64,000 nt of DNA from Patescibacteria group bacterium (GCA_029210775.1 JARGGI010000003.1:4512-68511); one strand, 5' to 3'. Positions 19,200 to 52,009 are shown, counted from the first letter of the stretch. Translations and numbers: made by a program. The notes: generated from the sequence alone by a model not told the origin.

Positions 19200-19766
19200 A
19201 TGAAAAAAATAATAATAGGAGCTTCTGGAGATGTTGGAAGTTTTTCCGCACAAGCTTCAAAAGAATATGCAAGAACAAATAACATAATAAATTACGAAAT
19301 TAAATATCTAATATCCGTAGAAAAAGTACTCAAAGAACTTGATGAAAAAAAAATTGACCTTGGAGTATTTCCGATTGAAAACTCAAATGGTGGAATTGTA
19401 ATTGAAAGCATAAATGCAATGAGTAAACATATTTTCAAGATAAAAAATATATTTGAGATTCCAGTAGTTCAATGTCTTTTGACAAAACCTGGAATTGAAA
19501 AAGAAGACATAAAAACAATTGCGTCTCATGATCAGGCCCTAAAACAATGTAAAACTTATCTCAAAAGAAGTTGGACAGAAACTGAATTAACAGAAACTGA
19601 AGATACTGCAAAATCCGCAAAAGAGCTCTCGGAAGGAATTCTTAGTGAAGACACCGCAGTTCTTGCTCCTGAAAGTTGCGCAACCCTATATGGACTTATT
19701 GTTATGGAAAAAGGAATTCAGGATTTAAAATTCAACTTTACGAATTTCTTGGTGGTGGAAAAATAA
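19200..19766 (+). CDS. pheA: prephenate dehydratase, catalytic domain only (no ACT domain), paralog 1
   Basis: GxxGSFS...FPIENSNGG...IASHDQALKQC...DTAVLAP...NFTNF matches the PDT domain; 188 aa. Confidence 0.75.
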   Translation: MKKIIIGASGDVGSFSAQASKEYARTNNIINYEIKYLISVEKVLKELDEKKIDLGVFPIENSNGGIVIESINAMSKHIFKIKNIFEIPVVQCLLTKPGIEKEDIKTIASHDQALKQCKTYLKRSWTETELTETEDTAKSAKELSEGILSEDTAVLAPESCATLYGLIVMEKGIQDLKFNFTNFLVVEK

Positions 19767-20339: not shown

Positions 20340-20392
20340 CTCCTTCTCCTCCGTCTTATTTTCAATTGTAAAGGTACGTTTTTGTTTTAGAT

Positions 20393-20466
20393 GCGCTGAG
20401 TGAGATTTGAACTCACGACCTCCCGGTTTTCAAACGGGTCTCTTCCTAATCTGAGATATCAGCGCA
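20393..20466 (-). tRNA. tRNA-Phe (anticodon GAA)
   Basis: Minus-strand sequence GCGCTGATATCTCAGATTAGGAAGAGACCCGTTTGAAAACCGGGAGGTCGTGAGTTCAAATCTCACTCAGCGCA. Acceptor 7 bp, T-arm GTGAG-TTCAAAT-CTCAC, anticodon loop TTGAAAA; CCA is not encoded. Confidence 0.85.
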
Positions 20467-20868: not shown

Positions 20869-21435
20869 ATGAATAAGCTGAAAATTGGCATTTCTGGTAA
20901 TATTGGCAGTTTTTCAGAAGAAGCTGCTAAATATTATTGTCAAAGAAATAGTATAAAAAATTTTGACCTAAGTTATTTAATTAGCGCTGACAAAACACTA
21001 TCCTCGCTTGAAAAAGAAAAAATTGATAAAGCAATTTTCCCTATAGAAAATTCAAACGGAGGAATTGTCGAAGAAGCAATTTACGCAATAAGTAGATATC
21101 TTTTCGAAATTGAAAATATATTTGAAATTGATATACAACATTGCTTACTTGTTCAAAGGGGGGTTAAAGCAGCAGACATAAAAACTATAGCATCTCATCC
21201 ACAAGCACTAAAACAGTGCAAAATGTATTTAAAAAAAGAATGGAAAAACCTCAAACTACAAGAATATTCAGACACTGCAAGCGCTGCTAAAGATCTTTGT
21301 AATGGAGTATTATCCTCAGACACTGCGGTTATTGCACCAAAAATATGTAAAAAATTATATAAGTTAGACATAATAGGAGAAGGAATTCAAGATTTAAAAT
21401 TTAATTTTACCACATTCGTTGTCGCAAAAAAATAG
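20869..21435 (+). CDS. pheA: prephenate dehydratase, catalytic domain only, paralog 2
   Basis: Same motifs as paralog 1 (GSFS, FPIENSNGG, IASHPQALKQC, DTAVIAP, NFTTF); 188 aa. Confidence 0.75.
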   Translation: MNKLKIGISGNIGSFSEEAAKYYCQRNSIKNFDLSYLISADKTLSSLEKEKIDKAIFPIENSNGGIVEEAIYAISRYLFEIENIFEIDIQHCLLVQRGVKAADIKTIASHPQALKQCKMYLKKEWKNLKLQEYSDTASAAKDLCNGVLSSDTAVIAPKICKKLYKLDIIGEGIQDLKFNFTTFVVAKK

Positions 21436-40196: not shown

Positions 40197-40610
40197 ATGA
40201 AAAGTAAAACACAAAAGTTTCCATTTTACAATAGTGATGAGGAATTGCAAAAGTTTTTATCAAGTAATCTAGCAGACACACTCAAACAAACTATTAAGGT
40301 GACTGTGAAAGTCATGATTAAAGATGAAATGGAATTATTTAGAAAAGAGATGGATGAAAAACTGCAATTCAATGGATATTATCAAAGGAATATGATGTCC
40401 ACTTTAGGAAAAATAGATAATATCAATGTACCAAGATTTAGACAAAATGTAGATAATCTTGAATTAAATTCTTTAAATATTTTTCAAGATCAAAAAAATA
40501 ATTTTATTAAAATGATTCAGCAGATGCATCTTTCGCAATCAATAACGTCTGTATTATTCCTCCCGAAATTTTTTCATCTTTTTCGTTTGATATTACAACC
40601 CTTGACATAA
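40197..40610 (+). pseudogene. IS256-family (mutator-type) transposase N-terminal remnant
   Basis: FNGYYQRNMMSTLGKIDNINVPRFRQ matches the conserved RNGYYER...LRVPRDR block of IS256 transposases; only about 130 aa remain. Confidence 0.6.
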
Positions 40611-40713
40611 ATCCTGCCAAATACGGATTATTTGTTTTAAGGTCTGTAAACATCTCTTTGAAAAAATTCGGATTCTTTTTAACCTGTTGTATTACTTCGT
40701 CCTCTGATTTCAC
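40507..40713 (-). CDS. small ORF (68 aa) resembling a Nif11/NHLP-type RiPP leader that ends in GG, followed by a 16-aa C-terminal segment
   Basis: MKSEDEVIQQVKKNPNFFKEMF... acidic helical N-terminus; ...NEKDEKISGG | IIQTLLIAKDASAESF; SD AGGTGA with GTG start; borders the island. Confidence 0.4.
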   Translation of the reverse strand: MKSEDEVIQQVKKNPNFFKEMFTDLKTNNPYLAGFMSRVVISNEKDEKISGGIIQTLLIAKDASAESF

Positions 40714-40844
40714 CTATATCACCTCGTTTAATTGTGTGTAAAAGCACTATTGTCATTTTGACTAATCAGTATAGCAAATTTAAACCAAAAGTCAACAGTA
40801 ATGGGTATAAAAAATAACCCTTTAGATAAAGGGATATTTTATAA

Positions 40845-40946
40845 TACTCATGTCAGGACAACTTTCGAACTTTTGATTGGGTGAAAACAATGCTTGTGCC
40901 AGAGCTTGTAATAAAAGATATCAATCAATTATTGTCACTGGCATGA
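40845..40946 (+). pseudogene. truncated paralog (copy 1) of the small ORF 43508..43675; conserved C-terminal 30 codons present, no start codon, stop just upstream
   Basis: Frame encodes ...QDNFRTFDWVKTMLVPELVIKDINQLLSLA*. Its nucleotide differences from copy 2 are mostly synonymous in this frame; the same upstream hairpin as copy 2 is present. Confidence 0.4.
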
Positions 40947-41120
40947 ATCTCACTGCGGGTCTCCGACTCCGCAGGTCGTCATCATGATATTACTCATTCA
41001 AACATCCAGAATATTCTATTTTTATACAATTATATTAGTCCCACTTGTTATGGGCTGCAATTCATCTCTGTGTGTCTTTAAAAACAGCATAGGATGTTCT
41101 TGCCGAAATTTATATATTTT

Positions 41121-41150
41121 AATACGATTTCGTTAAATCGTATTTTCTAA
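41121..41150 (+). terminator. rho-independent terminator (AATACGATTT-cgtt-AAATCGTATT, then TTTT) after copy 1
   Basis: Seen directly. Confidence 0.5.
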
Positions 41151-41167
41151 ACCGCAAAAAAACACAT

Positions 41168-41788
41168 TTATATTTTTTTAGAAATAATATAAAACCAGTC
41201 TCTTTTATGGGCAGAGAACTTCTTAATATAAAATGACTTAAAACCACATTTGGTTAAATAAACTAGAATTTCCTTTTTTGTGAATTTATTAAAAACAAAA
41301 TCATCAGGTTCTATATCTCCTTTTTCTTTCTTCATAGCAATAACCCCAAAAACGCCATTTTTCTTTAAGGTTCTTCTAACTTCTTTTAAAGAACTTTCAA
41401 TATCATTGAAAGTTAAATGCGTAAACAAAGAAGAAGAGGCCCAAATTCCATCAAAATAATTACCTTCAAAAATGAGCTGCACCATATTCATTAAATAAAA
41501 TTTACCCTTATTATTTTTATTGGCATAAGCTATCATTTTCTCAGATATATCTATTCCAAAACCATCATAGCCTTTTTCGATAAAATATTTTACATCCCTA
41601 CCAGTTCCACTTCCCATATCTAAAATTTTTCCTTTTTTAGATACACATTCTAAAAACTTATCAAGCTTATCTTGCATAAGTACATCCCCACTTTTTAAAT
41701 AGGAATCTAGATTATTATTATACCAGCTTTTTACTTCTTTATAGACCTGTTTCATAAAAAATCGAGAAGTAACTTTGCTACTTCTCAT
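41168..41788 (-). CDS. class I SAM-dependent methyltransferase
   Basis: Motif I ILDMGSGTGRD; 206 aa; no SD of its own; starts 8 nt after the preceding small ORF. Confidence 0.8.
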   Translation of the reverse strand: MRSSKVTSRFFMKQVYKEVKSWYNNNLDSYLKSGDVLMQDKLDKFLECVSKKGKILDMGSGTGRDVKYFIEKGYDGFGIDISEKMIAYANKNNKGKFYLMNMVQLIFEGNYFDGIWASSSLFTHLTFNDIESSLKEVRRTLKKNGVFGVIAMKKEKGDIEPDDFVFNKFTKKEILVYLTKCGFKSFYIKKFSAHKRDWFYIISKKI

Positions 41789-41796
41789 ATTAAAAT

Positions 41797-41904
41797 TTAA
41801 CGTTTATGCGAGAACTTTAATCGATTAAGTTCCACAGCTTTGGCAGCAGAAAGAAATGTTCTGATCTGCCTTGTTCTCACCAATATAGATGGAAACAAAC
41901 ACAC
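41797..41904 (-). CDS. 35-aa ORF (GTG start; MCLFPSILVRTRQIRTFLSAAKAVELNRLKFSHKR) with a strong SD, between the rSAM and methyltransferase genes
   Basis: AAGGAGGTGA 5 nt before the GTG; not in the ORF track (too short); candidate small peptide or coupling ORF. Confidence 0.35.
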   Translation of the reverse strand: MCLFPSILVRTRQIRTFLSAAKAVELNRLKFSHKR

Positions 41905-41953
41905 TTTCACCTCCTTATTTTTTGTATTCGTTGCACAACAAGCTTAGTATTTG

Positions 41954-43252
41954 CTACCGGCTTGCTTTCTCAAACATTTTTTTACTATAGAGTACTTTAA
42001 AGAATATTTCTCTATCTTCTTCCGATTTTACTGGCAACTCTAATTCATGCCATTTAAAGGCATTCCCATTCTGGGGTAGTTTAAGAGCAACGTTATATCC
42101 CTCCTCATCAAGAAATACCAATTCATCATTATACAATACCACACCGCCAAATTCCTCAGTTCTAATTTTTACATCACTTTTGAGCCGCAAATATTCCGGC
42201 ACAATAAAATCAAACTGAGAATGATTAACAACGGGTTTTATTAATTCCGGATTAGTCATGAGGGGGTCTTTCCCACGAATGTCGCCATAAAAAAGCTTAG
42301 CATCCATTCTACAGCCTCCAGAACATTGCAGGAGATAAGAACAGGTTTTACATGTTTCGTAGAGAAAAATACCATCACGCCATTCTTGCATCGCTAACCA
42401 GCATTCTCTTAAAGATTTCTCAAACAAATTACCATAGCTCATATCTGCATGGGCACAGGGACGTACTGATCCATCCGGAGAAACGGAACAATTAAATATT
42501 CCTGCGGTACAATTACGACGCGTAAATTGCTGATATTTTTCCATATCCTGAATAAAACAAAGTGGATAAGTTTCTAATATTTCTACCCACATTCCAAAAT
42601 CTATTTGCAGCCGCAGTAAATCGTCCATTGATTGCTTAAATTGCTGAGGCGTTCCACGATAATTCTTATACTCAGTGTTAGGGGAAGGTGCAACCTTAGT
42701 TGCAGAAAAACGCAACAAGCCAAGTTCATGAGCTAATTTTCCAGTTTCATAAACCTGATAAGCATTTTCCTTACGCACAACCATATTTGCGCTTGTTAAT
42801 ACTCCAGCATCTGTAAGCATGCGAATTTTTGGGAGCAAACGCTTATGGAAACCCTTACGTTGTATTATCTTATCATGTACTTCTGGCTGATAAGACAATA
42901 ACGTTGTCAATACTCCAACTCCATGATCACTAAAAAAACGCGTCATTTCTGGAGTAAGCTTTTGTAAATTGCTATTACAATAAACCCCTAGTCCCAATTC
43001 TCTTGCTTTCCCAATACCAGCCTTAAGAGTATCTTTAAACATTAATGGCTCACCACCAGTAAAGCACACTGACATTACCTTCCAGCGAGCAAGTTCTTCT
43101 ACTAATGTTTTAACCTGATTCGGACTCAGATGTTTCGTTTCCTCTTTTTGAATATTTTGACATGCCCGATAACAATGACTACAAACTTGATTGCAATCAT
43201 CAGTTACTTCGATTTGTACCGAAAGTGGCGCACTAAGTGTTCTGTATAACAT
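41954..43252 (-). CDS. radical SAM enzyme with C-terminal SPASM domain (anSME/peptide-maturase type)
   Basis: CNQVCSHC (CxxxCxxC) at aa 20-27; C-terminal auxiliary cluster motifs CTAGIFNCSVSPDGSVRPC and CKTCSYLLQCSGGC. Confidence 0.85.
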   Translation of the reverse strand: MLYRTLSAPLSVQIEVTDDCNQVCSHCYRACQNIQKEETKHLSPNQVKTLVEELARWKVMSVCFTGGEPLMFKDTLKAGIGKARELGLGVYCNSNLQKLTPEMTRFFSDHGVGVLTTLLSYQPEVHDKIIQRKGFHKRLLPKIRMLTDAGVLTSANMVVRKENAYQVYETGKLAHELGLLRFSATKVAPSPNTEYKNYRGTPQQFKQSMDDLLRLQIDFGMWVEILETYPLCFIQDMEKYQQFTRRNCTAGIFNCSVSPDGSVRPCAHADMSYGNLFEKSLRECWLAMQEWRDGIFLYETCKTCSYLLQCSGGCRMDAKLFYGDIRGKDPLMTNPELIKPVVNHSQFDFIVPEYLRLKSDVKIRTEEFGGVVLYNDELVFLDEEGYNVALKLPQNGNAFKWHELELPVKSEEDREIFFKVLYSKKMFEKASR

Positions 43253-43422
43253 TATCTGCCTCTATATTTTAAAAGAACTCATCTGATTAAAAAGTTTCTT
43301 TTTAATCATCCTTCCTTGTAAATAACTTTAACAAATCCAAAGATATTGTCAATACAGAGAGGATTTTTGTTGCGAATTGATAGAATATATTCCCCTATCA
43401 AAAGTTCTAACGTCCCTTTTTG

Positions 43423-43462
43423 GGTATAAAAATAATCCTTTAAACAAAGGATTATTTTTGTT
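43423..43462. terminator. hairpin (AAAATAATCCTTT-aaac-AAAGGATTATTTTT) upstream of copy 2; a homologous hairpin precedes copy 1 at 40806..40838
   Basis: Seen directly in both copies. Confidence 0.45.
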
Positions 43463-43507
43463 GGCTCCGCATCGTGAACGATGTTAGAACCATTTTTTTA
43501 AATTTAA

Positions 43508-43675
43508 ATGAGAATGCTTTTATCCCAGACCTCTCCGCACAGAGGCAGATTTAGTTTATTGATTGTCATATTGCTCGCTTGGCGGGACAGCTTTCGAACC
43601 TTTGATTGGGTAAAAGCGTTGCCTGTACCAGAGTTAGTGATTCGGCAAATTGGGCAATTATTAGAGCTTGCGTAA
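43508..43675 (+). CDS. small ORF (55 aa; MRMLLSQTSPHRGRFSLLIVILLAWRDSFRTFDWVKALPVPELVIRQIGQLLELA), copy 2 of a paralog pair; candidate precursor peptide
   Basis: ATG start; C-terminal 30 aa conserved with copy 1 through mainly synonymous substitutions; aromatic/Lys motif FRTFDWVK; a partial third copy of the 5' region lies at 43696..43760. Confidence 0.45.
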   Translation: MRMLLSQTSPHRGRFSLLIVILLAWRDSFRTFDWVKALPVPELVIRQIGQLLELA

Positions 43676-43894
43676 AAATATAATAAATATTCTATTCACA
43701 CGGTGGCAGATTTAGTTTATTTAATATTTTCAGTGCTCCGCTTTTCTTATCATTATTAACAATCTAACAGAAAGAGGTCGTTTGTCAATATGCTATTATG
43801 CAATGCTATTATGCAAGTTAATTTCTTTGTTATTATTCCCTCAATCAATAACCTCTCTCGGACTTACGCCGTTGCCAGGGCTGGTGATTTATAA

Positions 43895-44575
43895 TTAATT
43901 TCTATATTTTTGAATTCTACCTTCTTTAGAAACCCACATATCGCCAAATCCATAAAGTTTTCCTGATTCTGATAATTCAACCCATGATCCTTTTTCACCA
44001 ATAGCAACAAACTGCGTTTTAGATTCTAGCCTTAAATTCTTAAACGCATTAAAGGCAACTTCTGCGGTTTTCTCTTGAGAGTGGACAAGACACCCCAAAT
44101 CGATAATACCCCAACCTTTCTTCCATATTGCTCTATTGTCTTCAATGTCTGTATACCAAGCAGCGAGCGCCTGAACACCAGCGCTTATCCCGACAATAAC
44201 AATGCCTTTTTTTATTGCACGTTTTAATACCGGTAATAATTGCCAACGATCAAACAAAGATAGAAGATATTCTGTTTTTCCTCCTCCAAAATAAATTACT
44301 GAAGATTCCATTATGGCTACTTCAGCTGCTTCTTTGCCTTCTAATTCAACAACCGCTCGGAAATTAAAATCATTTTCAAAAATTTTCCGCATCGAATTAA
44401 TATAATCAATACTGTCTTTCGCAGCAGTTGGGAAAAAAATAAAATTAGCTCTATCTTTTTGTAAAGCAAATTTTTTTATTGCTATATCGACTGATTTTGT
44501 TTCGCCTTTTTTTATTTCACCTCCGCCTATGAGAAAAATTTTATTTTGCATAATAATATATTTAATTGAAAACAA
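43895..44575 (-). CDS. peptidase S51 / cyanophycinase-dipeptidase E family (type-1 glutamine amidotransferase-like fold)
   Basis: GGG...FFPTA..., YFGGGKTEYLL and the nucleophile elbow GISAGV; start at 44575 (TTG) or 44551 (ATG). Confidence 0.7.
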   Translation of the reverse strand: MFSIKYIIMQNKIFLIGGGEIKKGETKSVDIAIKKFALQKDRANFIFFPTAAKDSIDYINSMRKIFENDFNFRAVVELEGKEAAEVAIMESSVIYFGGGKTEYLLSLFDRWQLLPVLKRAIKKGIVIVGISAGVQALAAWYTDIEDNRAIWKKGWGIIDLGCLVHSQEKTAEVAFNAFKNLRLESKTQFVAIGEKGSWVELSESGKLYGFGDMWVSKEGRIQKYRN

Positions 44576-44633
44576 TTTTGTAAGTGATAGTTAAAAAATT
44601 ACCCTCTACTAATTGCGTAAAGGGCGGTAATAA

Positions 44634-45869
44634 TTAATTACCAATTTGGCTTTTACTTTCATACAGAAGATTTTTTATTTCTAACAATTCTGATATACCT
44701 CCAATTAGCGTTATGCCTGTTTTACGTACTTTGATATCAAGCTTTCCTGTTGTGGTTTTATTTGCCAAAACAACTCGCATTGGTATTCCTAAAAGATCGG
44801 CATCTATCAAAGAACGCCCTATTGATTGATCTCTTAAGTCTAATAATACAGTACAGCCTAATATTTCTAGATTTTTGGTTAATTTCTTCGCTTCTTCGGC
44901 TCGTTCCTGATTAGCTATCAAGTGTATATCAAACGGCGCTATTTCTATGGGCCAAACCAACCCATGTTCGTCGTGATAATACTCGGCGAGTATTTGCATC
45001 AATCGACTTAAACCAATACCCCCGACGGCAGTCTGAATCGGCTTATTACTACCTATCGACAACGCATTCATTTTCCCGGTAATAATAGTGCCATGACGCA
45101 CTATATCTCCGAGCTCCACAGCCGGTACGTTTTCCATTAAATGGCCGCAATTAGGACAAACATCCATTATTTGTTTACCAAACCTATAAGAATTGATGCA
45201 TGCTGTACATGTATGCACAAAACACTGTTTGGTGGCGGAAGGAACCCAAAAAGAATCAGCTGGAGATTCTAACGGTGCGAAATAATACGACGCTTTCTTG
45301 TAAGGCAAACCTAACCAGCCCAAGAAAGACCGCATTACTTCATCCATCCGATGCATTTCCTCGCTTAATTCGATTTCATTCCGCGCCAATATATACATAT
45401 CGCCCATTACAAACGATCTGCTGCGGATAAAACCATGACTAGGTTGCAATTCATTGCGTATGCGTTCTCCAATCTGGAAATAGCGAAGAGGCATATCCTT
45501 GTCTTTGAAATCCGACTGGCAAAATAAATTTACCATTGATTCTTCCTGAGTGGGATTTATAACATATCTTTTCCCGTCTTTAAGAGTAGTTTCACAGAAC
45601 AATCCGGCAAAACGTTCAGCACGTCCCGATTTCTCCCATAAAAACATTTCTTGAAGGCTAGGTAAAAACATTTCCCAAAATCCTTGCTCACGACAAAACC
45701 TCCTAAATGCTCCTGAAATTTTTTCAAGAACCAATACGGCAGGGGGTAAAAGTGCAATACATCCCGACGATATTTTTTTTGCATACCCAGCAGATTCAAG
45801 CCAAATTAAGCCATCAGCGTCATTCCGTTGTGGCAGTTTCGTTCTAAAAAGTCCCGATGAATAAAGCAT
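44634..45869 (-). CDS. bacterial-type prolyl-tRNA synthetase homolog lacking the INS editing domain, which is replaced by a CxxC...CxxC zinc ribbon
   Basis: Colinear with ProRS: motif 1 region LPPAVLVLEKI, motif 2 FQIGERIRNE...RSRSFVMGDMY, motif 3 GGIGLSRLMQIL, then an anticodon-binding domain (LVWPIEIAPFDIHLI); a CTAC...CPNC insert sits where INS would be; higher GC than the host genes. Confidence 0.75.
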   Translation of the reverse strand: MLYSSGLFRTKLPQRNDADGLIWLESAGYAKKISSGCIALLPPAVLVLEKISGAFRRFCREQGFWEMFLPSLQEMFLWEKSGRAERFAGLFCETTLKDGKRYVINPTQEESMVNLFCQSDFKDKDMPLRYFQIGERIRNELQPSHGFIRSRSFVMGDMYILARNEIELSEEMHRMDEVMRSFLGWLGLPYKKASYYFAPLESPADSFWVPSATKQCFVHTCTACINSYRFGKQIMDVCPNCGHLMENVPAVELGDIVRHGTIITGKMNALSIGSNKPIQTAVGGIGLSRLMQILAEYYHDEHGLVWPIEIAPFDIHLIANQERAEEAKKLTKNLEILGCTVLLDLRDQSIGRSLIDADLLGIPMRVVLANKTTTGKLDIKVRKTGITLIGGISELLEIKNLLYESKSQIGN

Positions 45870-45921
45870 TCATATCACCTCTTTGTTTTATATTAAATTC
45901 GTCAGTTAAAGAACTGCTTAA

Positions 45922-45950
45922 AGTATAGTTAATATCTATCGTATAGTCAA
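45922..45950 (-). promoter_or_regulatory. near-consensus sigma70 promoter for the ProRS-like/S51 operon (TTGACT-N17-TATACT)
   Basis: Seen directly on the minus strand, about 50 nt upstream of the SD GAGGTGAT. Confidence 0.45.
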
Positions 45951-45951
45951 T

Positions 45952-46002
45952 ATCCCTGCTCAAAATCTGACATTTCTACTTTGGGTTGACAATCCCTGCT
46001 CA
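45952..46002 (-). promoter_or_regulatory. two direct copies of ATCCCTGCTCA, 40 nt apart; the promoter-proximal copy abuts the -35
   Basis: Seen directly (45952-45962 and 45992-46002). Confidence 0.35.
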
Positions 46003-46015
46003 CAAACAAATCAAA

Positions 46016-47311
46016 TTATTCACCGAAAATTTTGGCATTCATCGCAATTTCTTTGAGTATTGTCTGCATAAACCTACATTTTTGCCTATCTATCTCCTTG
46101 CCGGAGATAATCTGGAATGCCGGACAAGGACCGCCGCAAATATGACGTGCTTCGCATTTACTACACTGGCTGATTCTCTTAATAGGAATATTCATTTTCC
46201 CCTTGAAATTAGTCAGAAGGACATCATTCCAATTTTGAGAGCAAAAAGACAAGTGCCCCTCAGTGCTAATCGAAGCCATTATATACCCATTATTAAACAT
46301 ACAAGGACAGTGGCGCTTAATATTATTTGCTAAAGAAAAAAGTATCGGCGACGCTGCGGAGTCTATTGTAACTTTATTTTTCCTAGCAATACGTACAAGC
46401 TTCACTAATATTTGTGCATATTTTTCTCCATCAATATTCCATGCCAAAGACCGATAATGAAATGGTGTGTTTATCGTTATCGTTTTAGAAGGAAATGTTT
46501 TTAATGTGCCACGAAAAATTTTCGGCAATTGATCCAAAAAACCGGCATGCGGAGTTATAAGAACATGCGTATCTATTCCCGCTTTTATTAAACGATAGTA
46601 ATTATGTTTTGTGTCCTTAAAACTGCCACGCCCGTTTTTATAAATCCTGAATTTATTGTTAATATTTTCTGGCCCATCTATAGAAACTCCAATTTTAAAA
46701 TCATTCTTCTTAAAAAACCTTATCATATTATCATTAAGAAATGTAAGGTTGGTTGTCATTGTATAAAACGGCTTAATCATCTTCCTTGTTTTGACAGCTT
46801 CATTAACCATGTCTACTGTCCGTTTGATATGATCAAACCTAATCAATGGCTCACCCCCAAAAAAATGATACGTAATTTTTTCTGATGTTCCGTAAGAAAT
46901 TGTTTTCTTAATTACAGTCTCAAGTGTAGCATGAGACATTGTTTTTAAATTATTACGATTCTTCGTAACAAAACATTCGGGGCATTTTAAATTACACTCC
47001 TCAGTAAGAGCAATTCTAAAAGCACGGATATCTGGGTTTAAATTGAAAACTTTCGGATAAGGTATAGATTTCGATCGACTAAAAAAACCAAGCTCGTCAA
47101 GTTCTTTAAGCACACGCCATGCCTCCTTTTGTTTAGAAAGTGGCATGGAAATTATTACCTTTTTTGGATCTCTGGCAATTTTAAAAGCGTTTAATATGAC
47201 AAGATGAGAAGAACCGACTTCCGCATAATTCAGTGTCTCTTCATCAAAAATAGTGATCTTCCCTCTTGATCCGGAATAAACCCGAAAAGGATGAGCTGAT
47301 ATTTTTTTCAT
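46016..47311 (-). CDS. radical SAM/SPASM enzyme with a ~110-aa N-terminal extension (RRE/PqqD-like position) before the CxxxCxxC cluster
   Basis: CNLKCPEC at aa ~115; C-terminal SPASM motif CSKCEARHICGGPC; start trimmed to MKKISAHPFRV so that it begins 4 nt after the stop of the upstream rSAM (the track ORF 46016..47410 includes an in-frame overlap). Confidence 0.8.
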   Translation of the reverse strand: MKKISAHPFRVYSGSRGKITIFDEETLNYAEVGSSHLVILNAFKIARDPKKVIISMPLSKQKEAWRVLKELDELGFFSRSKSIPYPKVFNLNPDIRAFRIALTEECNLKCPECFVTKNRNNLKTMSHATLETVIKKTISYGTSEKITYHFFGGEPLIRFDHIKRTVDMVNEAVKTRKMIKPFYTMTTNLTFLNDNMIRFFKKNDFKIGVSIDGPENINNKFRIYKNGRGSFKDTKHNYYRLIKAGIDTHVLITPHAGFLDQLPKIFRGTLKTFPSKTITINTPFHYRSLAWNIDGEKYAQILVKLVRIARKNKVTIDSAASPILFSLANNIKRHCPCMFNNGYIMASISTEGHLSFCSQNWNDVLLTNFKGKMNIPIKRISQCSKCEARHICGGPCPAFQIISGKEIDRQKCRFMQTILKEIAMNAKIFGE

Positions 47312-47315
47312 ATAA

Positions 47316-48239
47316 TTATTTCCAAAATCTAGGATTATCAAAAAGCGAAACGCAATGAACACCGAAACAATTAGGTAGTTTTTCACTTTTCGATAATATA
47401 TTATTATCAATATTAGCTATTATCTCAGAAACCGGATCATTGAATAGATTACCCAGTTTTATATCTGGCCGATGGAAACACGGCGTCAAATCACCTTCGG
47501 CGCTACAAACAAAATACTCCTTACCCATACAACAGAGGGCGTTCGGTAATAGATTCTTGTTATTAAAAATCGCTTCCGTAAGCGCTATATAATCCTTTAT
47601 ATGCGTTGATTTATTTTTTTGCGAAATTTTTTTTATGGCATTAAAAATAATATTGTCTTTATTCTCTGTATTTAATTGCTGCATTTTTCCTTTTGGAATA
47701 AAGACTTCTTGAAATCGAATATCCGAAATACCAAGACCTTGAAGCCAATTAATAGTTTCATCTAATGTGGAAGCATTTTTCTTTGTTACTACCGTCGTCG
47801 TCGCCACATTTCGATAGCCACGCGAAATCAATCCCTTAATAGCATATACGGTGTCATCAAATCTACCACGTTGTTTATTGTGTACTTCTCTTATATGAGA
47901 ATCTATGGAAATATCAATCCTGTCCACATTGAGCCTTATTATCGTATCCAAATCGGCATCAGTAAGAAAAGTTGCACTGGTGTTTATTATTACCGGAATT
48001 TTTTTCTTTTTTATTTCACGAATAATAATATATGTTTCTTGCTTTAATTTTAAATGCAAAGGTTCGCCACCGGTTAAAATAACTTTATCAAAATTAAGCG
48101 CTTCTATTTTATCAGCAAAAATCTCAGCTTTATCTGGACTAATTTTTGAGGCTACTCGTTTTTGATATCCAGTCGCATAAAAACAATAGGCGCAACTAAT
48201 ATTACATAAATTATTTACCATCAAAAATAAACAGCGCAT
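47316..48239 (-). CDS. radical SAM enzyme with a short twitch/SPASM-like C-terminal Cys cluster
   Basis: CNISCAYC at aa 12-19; C-terminal CCMGKEYFVCSAEGDLTPC...CFGVHC. Confidence 0.8.
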   Translation of the reverse strand: MRCLFLMVNNLCNISCAYCFYATGYQKRVASKISPDKAEIFADKIEALNFDKVILTGGEPLHLKLKQETYIIIREIKKKKIPVIINTSATFLTDADLDTIIRLNVDRIDISIDSHIREVHNKQRGRFDDTVYAIKGLISRGYRNVATTTVVTKKNASTLDETINWLQGLGISDIRFQEVFIPKGKMQQLNTENKDNIIFNAIKKISQKNKSTHIKDYIALTEAIFNNKNLLPNALCCMGKEYFVCSAEGDLTPCFHRPDIKLGNLFNDPVSEIIANIDNNILSKSEKLPNCFGVHCVSLFDNPRFWK

Positions 48240-48589
48240 ATTTATTATATTTATACAGTAAAAAATACATTGTCAGACAAAATATGTTAATTAAGGATAC
48301 TTAATTATAAAAATTCCCCTTGCAATCAAAAAAACAAGAGGAATTTTAAAATGTGATATAGTAATTCTCTCTTAACCAGATTGACATGATGTCCTTGCTT
48401 TCTGTGTAGCTATATTAACTTTTTTTGCTTTTTTTTGTGATTTCATAGTAATAATATTCCTTTTATAATCATCAAATTAACCCTTAAATATTTCGACTTT
48501 TAATTTTTATAATAAAAACGGACACTGACCTTTAATCAAATATAGTATATTTCTCCTTATCTGTCAATGGCTCGTGCCTACATTCTGCT

Positions 48590-49663
48590 CCGAAGTGCAA
48601 CATCATAAAGGACATCCAAAGCCTGGTATAATAGTTAAGTCTTCACTTAATTATTAACCAACAAATAGATGCCCTACAAACATATTACACCAGATCAGAG
48701 AAATGAGCTATCTGCCCTTAAAAGAACTAAAATAAGACAGGAAGAAATCGCTCAATTATTGGGAAAAAACAGAACGACAATTTACAGGGAAATTATAAGA
48801 AACAAAAATAAGAATGGAAAATACGATGCCAGAATCGCCAAACAAAAAACCAAAAAAAGAAGAATAAAAGCCAACCAAAGATTCAGAAAAATAGAAAATA
48901 ACAGATGGTTGAGAACATATCTAATTAAAAAAATAAAAGTATTGGTCGCCAGAACAGATTGCGGGAAGAATAAAAAGGAAATGGCCAGAAGACAAATCAA
49001 AACATATCGGCAAAGACAGCATCTATGATTTCATATATACTGAAAGAAAAGATCTGGTAAAATATCTCCGATGCCAGAAGGGAAAATATCGCAGAAGGTA
49101 TGGCACGAGAATTAGAGAAAAACAGCGAGAGGAAGCTAAAAAGAAGAGGATTGATACAAGGCCTGAAATTGTTAAAACGAGAGAAAGAATCGGCGATTGG
49201 GAAGGAGATACTATTGTCGGCAAAGAAAAAACAATTCATATTTTGACTCATGTGGAAAGAAAAAGCGGAATGCTGTTTGCGGATAAGTTGGAAAAAGCGA
49301 CAGCGGAATTAACTAGAGAAAAAACTATTAAGAGATTTGAAAAAATACCAAGAAAGAAAAAATACACGCTCACTTATGATAATGGAACAACCTTTGCTAG
49401 CCATCAAGATACTGAAAGAAAGATAAAAATAGGCATTTATTTTGCTTTTCCTTATCATTCTTGGGAAAGAGGATGCAACGAAAACGCTAATGGGCTTCTC
49501 AGGCAATTCTTTCCCAAAAAATCATCATTCGCAAATATTAATCAAAAAGATATTGACAAAGCCTATCGGCTCATTAATAATAGACCAAGAAAGAGGCTTA
49601 ACTATCTAACTCCTTACGAAGTGTTCTATGAGAAATAATTTCTTAAAAAATGTTGCACTTTGG
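48590..49663 (+). mobile_element. IS30-family insertion sequence (~1.07 kb) with terminal inverted repeats CCGAAGTGCAACAT / ATGTTGCACTTTGG
   Basis: IRL at 48590-48603 and IRR at 49650-49663 (13 of 14 matching); a transposase lies between them. Confidence 0.7.
48669..49638 (+). pseudogene. IS30-family transposase interrupted by a single +1 frameshift in an A7 run (~48925-48935)
   Basis: ORF1 is the HTH N-terminus (MPYKHITPDQRNELSALKRTKIRQEEIAQLLGKNRTTIYREIIRN); the +1 frame continues YWSPEQIAGRIKRKWPEDKSKHIGKDSIYDFIYTERKD...DWEGDTIVGKEKTIHILTHVERKSGMLFADKL...DNGTTFASHQD...NNRPRKRLNYLTPYEVFYEK (DDE core) with no further stops. Confidence 0.8.
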
Positions 49664-49828
49664 AATAGAATTCAAGGTGTCTACAATGATTCGTGACACA
49701 AACTCGCGACAGAGAGCATAACATTATCTATCAAACAGCCCTTCTGTGTTAATTTTCGGTCAAGTAAACCAGAGATTACCCTATTCTATTCTTAAACTCC
49801 TTAATAATATTCTCACATCCTTCCGCTC

Positions 49829-50149
49829 TCACATATCCCATGCTTTTTTATAATCTGGGAACTCATTGGTTTTCTTAATCTCTCTGTCCGGATCTTTTTG
49901 TTTGAAATATTTCAAAAAGATATGCTCAAGAAAGGCATGCACTAGAATATGAATGCGAACATTGAATGATTCGTTTTTATATTTATTCTCAAAATATTTC
50001 CACGATTTCGCTGCTTGTTTTAAGTTTCCGTCTTGAATAAACAACTGATGAATCAGCTCATGAATTAAGTTATCGATAAAACGATCTGGCTCTTCGTAGG
50101 CTCGTAATGTTAAAGGATCAGAGAATGGTACGCAGTTTCCTACCAACAA
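49829..50149 (-). CDS. HExxH-containing fragment (NLIHELIHQLF); possible ImmA/IrrE (DUF955)-like metallopeptidase remnant
   Basis: Motif only; TTG start; N-terminal region apparently missing. Confidence 0.3.
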   Translation of the reverse strand: MLVGNCVPFSDPLTLRAYEEPDRFIDNLIHELIHQLFIQDGNLKQAAKSWKYFENKYKNESFNVRIHILVHAFLEHIFLKYFKQKDPDREIKKTNEFPDYKKAWDM

Positions 50150-50384
50150 CCTAAGCCGATTGTTGATTGGAATAAATGGCTAATGTTAGCTATAAATCGT
50201 TGTTTTGTTGCTAAAATATCATGCAGTTATATAGACCTATTTATGTCGACTTTTGCTCTGGAAAAAATCCCGAAATTGGGACAATACTGCTCTGAAATTG
50301 TAACGAATTAACTACAAATTAATCTTACCAGATAATAACGGATATGTCAACGCTCGCTCGCTCAGTCTTGTCTGATATAAGATG

Positions 50385-50456
50385 CTCCGCGAGAGGGATT
50401 CGAACCCCCGACCAATTGGTTAACAGCCAACTGCTCTACCACTGAGCTATCGCGGA
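50385..50456 (-). tRNA. tRNA-Asn (anticodon GTT)
   Basis: Minus-strand TCCGCGATAGCTCAGTGGTAGAGCAGTTGGCTGTTAACCAATTGGTCGGGGGTTCGAATCCCTCTCGCGGAG; canonical cloverleaf, anticodon loop CTGTTAA; its 3' end faces the island. Confidence 0.85.
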
Positions 50457-50578
50457 ATAAAAAAAGTGATTTTTATTTCGTTTCAAAACGAACAAATAAC
50501 AACCAACTCACAACTTTAAAAATCACTCTAATAATATACTATTAAAACTTTCATTCGTCAACACCAAAAAAGTTTAAA

Positions 50579-52009
50579 TTAATAATCAAGCAATCTTTTT
50601 GATTCTCTATGCTTTCTAATTTTTTCAAGTGCTTTTGCTTCAATCTGCCTAATTCTTTCTCTTGTCACACCAAATTCCTGTCCAATTTCCTCCAAAGTAT
50701 GAGTCACTCCATCTTCAAGTCCAAAACGTAATTTCAAAATTTTCTGTTCTCTTGGAGAAAGTTCAACTAAAATTTCTTTCACATACCCCTTAAGTAGCTG
50801 TCTTCCTGCAGATTGAGATGGAAGAACTGCATCAGTGTCTTCTATAAAATCACGAAGAGTACTGTCGTCATCATCTTCACCGACAGAAGTCTCAAGTGAA
50901 ACCGTATCTTGAGATATTTTCATAATATGTCTAACTTTTTCAACTTCAATATTCATTTCAGATGCAATTTCCTCTGGTAATGGTTCTCTTCCTAAATCCT
51001 GAACAAGACGCCTTGTTACCTGAGAAAACTTATTTATTGTTTCAACCATATGAACTGGAATTCTAATCGTGCGAGATTGATCTGCTATTGCTCTCGTAAT
51101 CGCTTGACGAATCCACCATGTTGCATATGTTGAAAATTTATATCCCTTTCTATAATCAAATTTTTCAACAGCTCTGAATAGTCCAATATTTCCTTCTTGA
51201 ATTAAATCCAATAAACTCAAATTTGCACTTCTTCCAACATATTTTTTTGCAATACTTACAACCAAACGAAGGTTTGCTTCAGAAAGCATCTGCTTAGCGG
51301 CCACATCACCCTTTTCTTTTCTTTTTGATAAAGAGACTTCTTCTTCCCCAGTCAAAAGAGACACTCTTCCAATCTCACGCAGATACATTTGAACAGAATC
51401 GCTGGAAATATTATCAAGAGACAATTCTCTTATTTCTTTTTCTACTTCTTTCTTGGTTTTTTTACTAACATCTTCTTTGGCATCAGAAACATCAATTATA
51501 TCAACATTGCTTACTACCTTTATATTTTCTTGTTCAAATTTGTCATATAGCAATTCAAGTTGACCAATATCATTTTCAATATCAGGAATTATTTTTATAA
51601 TCTCTTCTTCGGTTACAAAACCTTTCGATTTTCCCCTACTCATTAATTCTTCAATTTGATTATTAATGTTTTCATTTTCAACATCCTGCTTCTTTAAGTC
51701 TTTCTTTTTCAATTTTCCTGGCTTTATGCTCTTCCCTTTTTGCTTTCTTTTAAGTTTTGAAGATTTTCTCGCAATTGATTTTTTTGCTATTTTCTCTTTT
51801 TTCGCTTTTGCTTTTGCTTTTACAACAGTTTTAACTGTTTTCTTTTTCGGAGTTACTTTTTTCACTGTTTTCTTTTTTTTTGCTTTTGCTGTTACAACAG
51901 TTTTAGCTTCTTTCTTTTTCGGAGTTACTTTTTTCATTGTTTTCTTTTTCATCAATTTTGATTTTATCAATTTAATTGTTTTTTTATTTTTTATTTTTTT
52001 TGTTTTCAT
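50579..52009 (-). CDS. rpoD: RNA polymerase sigma-70 factor RpoD with a Lys/Ala/Thr-rich tandem-repeat N-terminus (histone H1-like)
   Basis: Regions 2-4 are conserved ([27 protein letters not shown]; 4.2 [23 protein letters not shown]); N-terminal [18 protein letters not shown] repeated twice (a ~63-nt tandem repeat near 51820-51960). Confidence 0.9.

Follow-up and report, generated by a model that had tools for sequence, protein, structure and literature searches.

Background

Characterised phage-type large serine integrases carry their attP site beside the integrase gene, which stays intact after integration, and their targets are mostly protein-coding genes or intergenic sites, not the extreme 3′ end of a tRNA gene. 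In the A118 type of these enzymes, the zinc-ribbon motif lies 5 bp nearer to the centre in attB than in attP (PMC3783163). The tyrosine integrases of the SSV and pT26-2 type are split by integration at the 3′ end of a tRNA gene and leave orphan fragments in genomes (PMC7253208, PMC8371274), and a 2021 review placed self-disrupting recombinases in Archaea only (PMC8371274, PMC7253208). Here we examine two short repeat copies on the plus strand of a 64,000-nt stretch from a Patescibacteria group bacterium (GCA_029210775.1, JARGGI010000003.1:4512-68511; the whole stretch is referred to as the window). We read both copies, with a probability of about 0.8, as the orphaned 3′ ends of large-serine-recombinase genes, that is, as the attL-side scars of islands integrated at the 3′ end of tRNA-Asn, and refer to them as tails. 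They had been noticed in an original prediction, made from the sequence of the window, which took them for precursors of a ribosomally synthesized and post-translationally modified peptide (RiPP).

The encoded peptide is the C-terminus of large serine recombinases

An exhaustive HMMER search of 1.84e9 representative proteins with a profile of the two copies gave 88 matches at E ≤ 1e-3. Most of them (~80) were short open reading frames (ORFs) of 37–128 aa with unrelated N-termini and with the motif (L)AW(R/Q)DSFRT(F/Y)(D/E)W.KA.P.PE....Q..QLLAL(V/A) at the extreme C-terminus. The long matches were large serine recombinases, such as the XisF/Ccr-like protein P0181 (549 aa; Resolvase, Recombinase and Zn_ribbon_recom domains), which ends in ...AWLDSFRTYEWSKAVPYPEVALKEIRQLLALV; the best database relative of copy 2, P0121, ends in ...LAWRDSFRTFDWVKALPVPELVIRNVRQLLALV. 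An integrase hidden Markov model (HMM) of 536 positions, built from five full-length family members, matched copy 2 at positions 498–535 (E=3e-16) and copy 1 at positions 507–535 (E=5.7e-9), and these were its only matches in the window, the next best having E=0.08. With the tail HMM, copy 2 reached E=4e-20 (positions 1–33) and copy 1 E=1.2e-13 (positions 4–33). Both tails share the stop position of the three-domain proteins and are the C-terminus of such an integrase.

The copies were predicted to share about 85 nt with differences mostly at third codon positions, and this was confirmed with small coordinate shifts. In a gapless alignment of 40851–40946 (copy 1) and 43580–43675 (copy 2), 30 of 96 positions differed, 7, 7 and 16 of them at codon positions 1, 2 and 3 of the frame that closes with TGA and TAA in one column, which is also the sole frame of six open in both copies. 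The dN/dS comparison that had been proposed was run with the Nei-Gojobori method and gave, in this frame, a dN (nonsynonymous divergence) of 0.245 and a dS (synonymous divergence) of 1.72, a ratio of ~0.14. The peptides were identical at 21 of 31 residues; random placement of an equal number of changes gave a mean of 13, and none of 20,000 permutations reached 21, in a test that ignores the clustering of changes. By manual count, 9 of the 14 codons with a single change were synonymous. The plain test of codon-position bias was weak (chi-square, p of only about 0.07), and the antisense frame which shares the wobble positions scored similarly, but is interrupted by stops. Of the purifying selection on a peptide that had been proposed, the coding-frame imprint is real, but it does not mark free-standing small genes, as the copies are integrase C-termini. 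The synonymous-biased divergence would have been acquired while each tail belonged to a working integrase of a different element.

As predicted, copy 2 stands at the end of an ATG-initiated 55-codon ORF (43508–43675, plus strand). The resemblance of this ORF to other proteins is confined to its last 33–38 codons, and it is read as a junction ORF; on direct reading, no Shine-Dalgarno sequence precedes its ATG. Copy 1 was indeed the more decayed one: it has no start codon, an in-frame stop lies just upstream, and it carries more substitutions than copy 2, with variant residues (IKD.N, SLA) that are found in other family members.

Pfam and NCBIfam scans of both tail peptides detected nothing, and Rfam detected no RNA family at the repeat in the window and in four loci of the Planctomycetes-Verrucomicrobia-Chlamydiae (PVC) group. 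With the 55-aa ORF as query, a word-indexed search of 5.8e9 proteins gave no candidates, its sensitivity being too low for the family that HMMER later found. Two other identities were tried and rejected. A transposase C-terminus or terminal inverted repeat of the IS256 or IS5 insertion sequence (IS) families was suggested by an IS256 fragment beside copy 1 and by a loose resemblance to the Y-R-E-K motif; there was no family match, and every copy has Phe where the catalytic Glu would stand. A minus-strand leader or small RNA was suggested by the position of both copies upstream of minus-strand genes with a terminator between; as the primary explanation it was rejected because the minus frames have stops or lack starts and the motif is a recombinase C-terminus.

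Solitary tails and split integrase genes in metagenomes

We scanned metagenomes for the first 11 tail codons, a pattern which misses tails with shorter 5′ ends and does not miss longer ones, and found at least 126 tails at no fewer than 120 loci. Among the matches listed (126 tails, 120 loci), about 5 tails sat on full-length ORFs and most were solitary. The remaining tails had an in-frame stop 0–50 codons before LAW, and ~95% kept a 32-codon frame to the stop. In 104 unique solitary tails among the matches listed, conservation starts sharply at GCTC/GCTTGG (the slash marks the boundary), with none further upstream, and GCTC stands at this boundary in 107 of 129 tails listed. Copy 2 likewise begins GCTC/GCTTGG, with the core that is common to the target intact, and copy 1 has a degenerate core, ACTC, at 40846–40849.

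At eight loci (L076, L078, L107, L114, L119, L125, L127 and L146), a solitary tail was followed on its own strand, 4.5–11 kb downstream, by a truncated recombinase body whose HMM match ended at positions 462–509 of 536 (489–509 in seven of these loci). Of ten truncated bodies, seven entered an antisense tRNA gene, mostly tRNA-Asn: ARAGORN identified tRNA-Asn(GTT) in L076, L078, L107, L127 and L135 and tRNA-His in L146, and the body in L125 reads into a tRNA-like remnant beside tRNA-Lys. One such junction reads ...CTGCTC/CCCGGGTAGGATTCGAACC, the second part being the antisense tRNA 3′ end. No tRNA was found near the intact integrase genes in five fetched loci. Bodies and intact genes were colinear across the junction, as the L135 body ends in ...CPVVL where protein P0123 reads ...CPVVLAWRDSF, and the end of the L076 body, ...GQKSPLQPEMRALL, fits the spacing of P0181, GQKSPFSTSCPIQSAW. 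Because tails and bodies are reciprocal and the bodies abut tRNAs, attP would lie within the integrase ORF, and the gene would be split when the element integrates at the tRNA 3′ end. The evidence for a site within the integrase's own ORF is comparative, consisting of intact genes, reciprocal fragments and colinear junctions.

These data bear on whether the tails are ordinary pseudogene debris, that is, whether two integrase genes were randomly deleted and their 3′ ends survived by chance with no recombination junction. Such debris would be integrase C-termini, as the tails are, and could be expected in a region rich in IS remnants in which copy 1 is visibly decayed. However, it predicts neither the 5′ boundary GCTC common to independent tails, nor bodies cut at the reciprocal point against tRNA genes, nor a hairpin directly upstream in about half of the cases, nor the tRNA heptamer GCTCCGC beside copy 2 (see below), and we consider it improbable.

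Pfam matches in the cargo ORFs of the L107 and L127 elements were limited to a methylase-Mrr fusion and a helix-turn-helix protein. The tails of many metagenome loci (e.g. L030–L034, L064, L066, L089, L101, L124 and L125) are often within ~150 nt of a contig end, which suggests that the repeat breaks metagenome assemblies and that islands are systematically fragmented in these genomes.

Anatomy of the proposed att sites

The attP-type site, ...GC[TC]GCTTGGCRGGACAGCTTTCGAAC..., is pseudo-palindromic, and its crossover dinucleotide is likely TC. Its attB-type partner consists of the antisense tRNA 3′ end, ...T GC[TC]C(C/G)C... TTCGAAC..., and the tRNA 3′ flank, often a terminator hairpin, so that the short core common to tail and tRNA sites is GC[TC]. 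Some members have partial dyad symmetry, with GGAC at positions 9–12 of both arms. TTCGAA was located at position 17 in all 129 P′ arms among the matches listed; in the tRNA arms checked, that of the window's tRNA-Asn among them, it stood at position 12. This is the 5-bp inward shift of A118-type serine integrase sites; TTCGAA would be bound by the zinc-ribbon domain. The P′ half-site of copy 2 is GCTTGGCGGGACAGCTTTCGAAC, with TTCGAA at position 17 from the core, and that of copy 1 is 2 nt short through a 2-nt deletion, with TTCGAA at position 15. FRTF in the tail peptide is the translation of TTT-CGA-ACN-TTT, a T-loop-like motif, and the double constraint on this stretch, on the protein and on the DNA site, explains why it is the most conserved.

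The tRNA-Asn and its island in the window

The features of the window are collected in Table 1. Its tRNA-Asn is antiparallel to the tails and lies 6.7 kb to the right of copy 2, against spans of 4.5–11 kb at the metagenome loci; this is the geometry expected of an attL scar and the one seen in L076, L078, L107, L127 and L135, where a body abuts the antisense tRNA-Asn. Plus-strand GCTCCGC, the antisense of the last 7 nt of this tRNA, occurs in the window only at 43464 (5 nt past hairpin 2), at 43735 (60 nt past the copy 2 stop) and at 50384, in the tRNA itself. No integrase body was found anywhere in the 64-kb window by tblastn or by a relaxed HMM search, and IS30 debris and unrelated DNA lie to the left of the tRNA-Asn, where L076, L078, L107, L127, L135 and L146 have a truncated body against the tRNA. 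Thus, both copies are classed as orphan attL scars. Two direct tails occur at the corresponding S51-rpoD-dnaG locus of a related genome, L025.

Table 1 Features of the window (positions from its first nucleotide)
Feature	Position	Strand	Description
IS256-family transposase, N-terminal fragment	40197-40530	+	just left of copy 1
Hairpin 1	40802..40840	.	bidirectional terminator-like stem-loop CCCTTTA/TAAAGGG; minimum free energy (MFE) -9.6
Copy 1, decayed integrase tail	40846..40946	+	encodes QDNFRTFDWVKTMLVPELVIKDINQLLSLA, then TGA
Cargo cassette between the two tails	41168..43352	-	promoter-like site 43352-43325
S-adenosylmethionine (SAM) methyltransferase gene	41168-41788	-	domain match
Terminator behind the 25-aa ORF	41787-41763	-	in the cassette
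25-aa Cys-rich ORF, likely precursor	41825-41902	-	between the radical SAM (rSAM)/SPASM and methyltransferase genes
rSAM/SPASM gene	41954-43252	-	domain match
Hairpin 2	43421..43458	.	bidirectional terminator-like stem-loop AATCCTTT/AAAGGATT; MFE -16.0
Putative older junction remnant	43464..43491	+	core GC[TC] plus CGC (tRNA-like), then variant P′ arm CGCATCGTGAACGATGTTAGAACC
Left arm joined to copy 2	43534..43576	+	ends in core GCTC (43573-43576)
Copy 2, near-consensus integrase tail	43574..43675	+	LAWRDSFRTFDWVKALPVPELVIRQIGQLLELA plus TAA
Island between copy 2 and tRNA	43676..50383	.	S51 peptidase, ProRS-like ligase, two rSAM genes, IS30-family pseudogene
Second copy of left arm	43695..43741	+	ends GCTCCGC (43735-43741)
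Candidate 24-aa precursor ORF	48372-48446	-	MKSQKKAKKVNIATQKARTSCQSG; terminator-like hairpin; just upstream of the 307-aa rSAM/SPASM gene
IS30-family transposase pseudogene	48669-49638	+	split over two frames
tRNA-Asn (GTT)	50384..50456	-	presumed target (B′ arm); TTCGAA at position 12 from core GC[TC]

A homologous hairpin had been predicted before both copies, and hairpins 1 and 2 were 85% identical over 39 nt (40802–40840 vs 43421–43458), with one compensatory change in the stem, C-G to T-A, on direct reading. Hairpin 1 is probably the host-side (B) arm of the attL junction, the tRNA-Asn terminator, and hairpin 2 can be read as the original 3′ flank (B arm) of tRNA-Asn; both would then be copies of the tRNA-Asn terminator, and transcripts of the minus strand may still end there. 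In the 50 nt upstream of 75 solitary metagenome tails, a stable hairpin was found in 49% vs 17–21% at control positions (p about 1e-5), an excess which fits a host-side arm made of the tRNA's own 3′ flank and terminator.

More than one event appears to be recorded between hairpin 2 and the end of the copy 2 region. The segment just past hairpin 2, which we hold with moderate confidence to be a third, older junction remnant on account of its sequence, has TTAGAA at position 17 of its CGCATCGTGAACGATGTTAGAACC arm. On direct reading, this arm resembles the 3′ end, or last codons, of the L113 recombinase ORF, ...GGGACATCGTGGACAACGTTAGAACTATAA; the two together suggest a putative second subfamily with attP inside the last ~10 codons of the gene. 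The third partial copy that the original prediction had noted was found and is longer than stated: it is a left-arm repeat of ~47 nt (43534–43576 vs 43695–43738), both copies of which end at GCTC and contain the exact 17-mer GGCAGATTTAGTTTATT (43544–43560 and 43705–43721). This left arm may derive from the end of an earlier integrase body. In its second copy, arm and core are followed by three tRNA-like bases, after which the DNA is unrelated, and this copy resembles an attR-type remnant.

At 42000–51000, the GC content is 0.35–0.40, compared with about 0.29 elsewhere in the window, as would be expected if the DNA between the tails and tRNA-Asn had been acquired horizontally. The IS256 fragment, which is cut off by a 68-codon minus-strand ORF (40507–40713), and the IS30 pseudogene together bracket the island. 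Elsewhere in the window, two paralogous 188-codon ORFs (19200–19766 and 20869–21435) with 72–76% nucleotide identity in two blocks flank tRNA-Phe (20390–20466).

The rSAM-methyltransferase cassette has its own candidate precursor

According to the original prediction, the two copies are RiPP precursor paralogs, copy 1 decaying, which are modified at F-x-W-x-K by the adjacent rSAM/SPASM enzymes. The coding-type substitution pattern between the copies, the three rSAM genes nearby and the ATG on copy 2 are in line with this. However, both tails are on the plus strand and all rSAM and methyltransferase enzymes of the window are on the minus strand, so that the segments are antisense to all of them; no Shine-Dalgarno sequence stands before the copy 2 ATG, copy 1 has no start, and no promoter-like site was found on the plus strand upstream of the tails. 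A precursor that is translated and shares a strand with its maturase is not what these copies look like.

The rSAM protein of the cassette is 100% identical to P0001, encoded on a 93-kb contig of a Patescibacteria MAG (metagenome-assembled genome). The cassette between the tails recurs in eight loci (L016–L023) from Moranbacteria and other candidate-phyla genomes amid unrelated surroundings, with rSAM proteins 58–83% identical. Against L016, nucleotide identity is 79% over exactly 41169–43352, and the flanks are unshared; since the homology is limited to this interval, both repeat copies lie outside the cassette, beyond the ends of its shared DNA at 43352 and 41169. A search for homologues of the 55-aa ORF beside SPASM-rSAM genes, which had been proposed, was run on the eight loci and found no copy, as neither repeat copy gave a match below E about 0.4 with tblastn or blastn. 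The peptide is therefore missing from all eight homologous loci and does not co-occur with the maturase homologues there, and most of the more than 120 other occurrences of the motif, which is a serine recombinase C-terminus, are without rSAM context.

A different ORF is conserved in each of these loci. The 165-nt gap between the rSAM and methyltransferase genes is conserved at 81–85% nucleotide identity and contains a 25-codon ORF with a strong ribosome-binding site, AAGGAGGTGA, before it and a terminator after it. In the window it encodes (M)FVSIYIGENKADQNISFCCQSCGT, ending in ...SFCCQSCGT; its relatives read MFVSIYIDEDKADQNVSFCCQTCGT and, more distantly, ...DNSFCCIHGCDE, and it is kept in every homologous cassette of L016–L023. 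No NCBIfam model matches it. From its sequence and position, this minus-strand ORF is likely the true precursor of the rSAM cassette. The FRTFDW motif is the translation of the recombination half-site ...TTTCGAAC..., which resembles a tRNA T-loop, and not a substrate motif of cyclophane-forming enzymes, with which the spacing in FDWVK had been compared. The proposal that the tails are RiPP precursors is thus almost certainly wrong, and the tails take no part in the rSAM chemistry next to them.

The island to the right of copy 2 has further genes on the minus strand (43895–48239), which follow the MKSQKKAKKVNIATQKARTSCQSG ORF and encode a 307-aa rSAM/SPASM protein, a 464-aa peptide-maturase-like rSAM protein, a ProRS-like ligase (411 aa, without the insertion domain) and an S51 peptidase. 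Together with that ORF, they may form a second peptide-modification cluster, with a C-terminal CQS(C)G motif like that of the 25-aa ORF.

Proposed mechanism and its rivals

We propose that attP lies within the integrase ORF, about 33 codons before its stop, and that attB consists of the antisense tRNA 3′ end and the tRNA 3′ flank. Integration would split the gene: the last 33 codons (the tail, with the P′ arm) would open the island on its far left, preceded by host DNA, and the body (with the P arm) would close it on the right, reading into the tRNA. In the unoccupied site, tRNA-Asn(GTT) would adjoin the hairpin AAAAATAAYCCTTT-loop-AAAGGRTTATTTTT within about 6 nt. The tails of the window would have arisen by such splitting, with the bodies lost later in a region that has IS256 and IS30 remnants, and we read the region as several integrations at tRNA-Asn followed by the loss of the integrase bodies.

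Several observations, besides the missing body, weigh against this reading. The two homologous hairpins imply two tRNA-Asn 3′ flanks, but the window has a single tRNA-Asn; loss of a tandem tRNA copy would account for the order hairpin-tail-cassette-hairpin-...-tRNA, which is an ad hoc conjecture. Copy 2 is 121 nt from hairpin 2, with another junction remnant between. In L076, the host-side arm beside the tail is P-arm-like for about 15 nt, which, together with the duplicated 47-nt arm at copy 2, suggests the entry of new elements at old junctions; to our knowledge, canonical serine integrases do not re-use old attR sites. No empty attB site or excised circle was seen, and there was no terminal overlap in any contig. 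The activity of the truncated integrase remains putative. Furthermore, integration of one element at one tRNA is insufficient for the tail arrays of ~1 kb spacing, some of which have their own hairpins (L045, L046, L095 and L079). Direct-repeat arrays of two to five matches with ~0.4–3.6 kb spacing were present in L045, L046, L079, L086, L095, L109 and L025, and the one in L045 (6847–9361) has five tail-HMM matches (three long, two partial) roughly 0.4–1.2 kb apart.

Such arrays would be expected if the tails were kept as DNA landing pads, that is, as secondary att sites used by a recombinase in trans, in integron-like arrays of hairpin, tail and cargo that include the rSAM cassette. The matches have the same orientation in L045 (five), in L046, L079, L086, L095 and L109 (two or three each) and in L025 and the window (two tails each); frames are intact in the large majority of the solitary tails listed; the arm to the left of the L076 tail looks like an old P arm; and the rSAM cassette lies exactly between two hairpin-tail units and has other contexts elsewhere. 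However, recombination of attP with attL or attR is not known for canonical large serine integrases, the intact frames may result from a bias of the pattern to young copies or from elements with a body beyond the contig, the relatives of the rSAM cassette have no tails, and the mobility of the cassette is without direct evidence. As an explanation of the tails in general, we find the landing-pad model unlikely.

A third possibility is a split enzyme: expression of the junction ORF would supply the tail as a small protein, which would complement the truncated integrase in trans, e.g. for excision. Copy 2 and many database tails are annotated as ORFs with start codons, and the tail peptide is conserved across the family. 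However, the N-termini and starts of the junction ORFs are unrelated, many have a stop one codon before LAW, copy 2 has no ribosome-binding site, and the window has no integrase body to complement, which makes a split enzyme of this kind highly improbable.

Possible relatives outside the candidate phyla

A pattern scan of genome contigs gave 15 matches vs about 9 expected by chance (an estimate), and of these only four PVC loci shared flanking similarity. These loci, L012, L015, L007 and L005, from metagenome-assembled genomes (MAGs) of Chlamydiota and Verrucomicrobiota, have a conserved block of ~40 nt, ...GGAGGTGG..GACGC.TTCAGAACTTTTGATTGGGTAAA. The tail HMM matched L012 (817–852, 6502–6573) and L015 (204–236, 2262–2315) partially, with two direct copies each, gave a weak match in L007 and none in L005. 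These matches may point to comparable scars of a related integrase family in organisms outside the candidate phyla.

Implications and comparison with known systems

For the window, the analysis removes a false RiPP precursor and leaves the 25-aa ORF as the real candidate. Recurrent 'hypothetical' ORFs of 40–130 aa in candidate-phyla genomes are explained as integration junctions, and the combination of tail, core GC[TC] and antisense tRNA is a simple marker that delimits mobile islands in Patescibacteria, a group in which little is known of mobile elements. Should the truncated and the full-length enzyme differ in activity, the system would have a built-in directionality switch of interest for integrase engineering. 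The more general claim is that Patescibacteria, and possibly some Chlamydiota and Verrucomicrobiota, carry serine integrases which split themselves at tRNA 3′ ends with the loss of 33 codons, the widespread tails maybe serving as landing pads; in our estimate, the odds on this are even. A literature search found no bacterial or serine-recombinase self-splitting integrase, and since its coverage was incomplete, any claim of novelty is provisional.

Compared with tRNA-targeting islands that carry tyrosine integrases, the present ones are alike in having a tRNA on one side and a short direct repeat on the other, in the accretion of elements at one tRNA, and in foreign base composition and IS debris. 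There, the distal repeat duplicates the 3′ end of the tRNA, whereas here the part repeated from the tRNA amounts to only 4–7 nt, GCTC(CGC), and the repeat that stands out is a fragment of the integrase gene. The RiPP precursors of rSAM/SPASM maturases, e.g. of the darobactin type, share with the tails the short ORFs near rSAM/SPASM genes and an aromatic-rich motif, but the tails are on the wrong strand, with neither a ribosome-binding site nor co-occurrence with a maturase, and the cassette has a precursor of its own.

The enzymes resemble phage-type large serine integrases (A118/LI, Bxb1, phiC31, SPbeta SprA) in domain architecture, in their short att sites with a non-palindromic central dinucleotide, and in a recognition motif whose distance from the centre is 5 bp smaller in the attB-type arm than in the attP-type arm (TTCGAA at 12 vs 17). 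With the 'suicidal' tyrosine integrases of the SSV and pT26-2 type, from archaeal viruses and plasmids, the system shares an attP within the integrase ORF, a split gene with fragments that border the element, the antiparallel tRNA 3′ end as target, and orphan fragments that accumulate in genomes. However, the present enzyme is a large serine recombinase (Resolvase, Recombinase and zinc ribbon) and not a tyrosine recombinase, the host is a Patescibacteria MAG and not an archaeon, and the shared core is only about 4–5 nt. The split also differs: the SSV type yields a short Int(N) and a catalytic Int(C), and the present one a long body with all Pfam-detected domains and a 33-aa tail. Judged by its sequences, the tail family works like the SSV type without belonging to the SSV family. 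Gene-splitting integration has been thought a trait of archaeal tyrosine recombinases, and its occurrence here suggests an independent origin in bacterial serine integrases, of which such a family would be the counterpart to the archaeal 'suicidal' tyrosine integrases.

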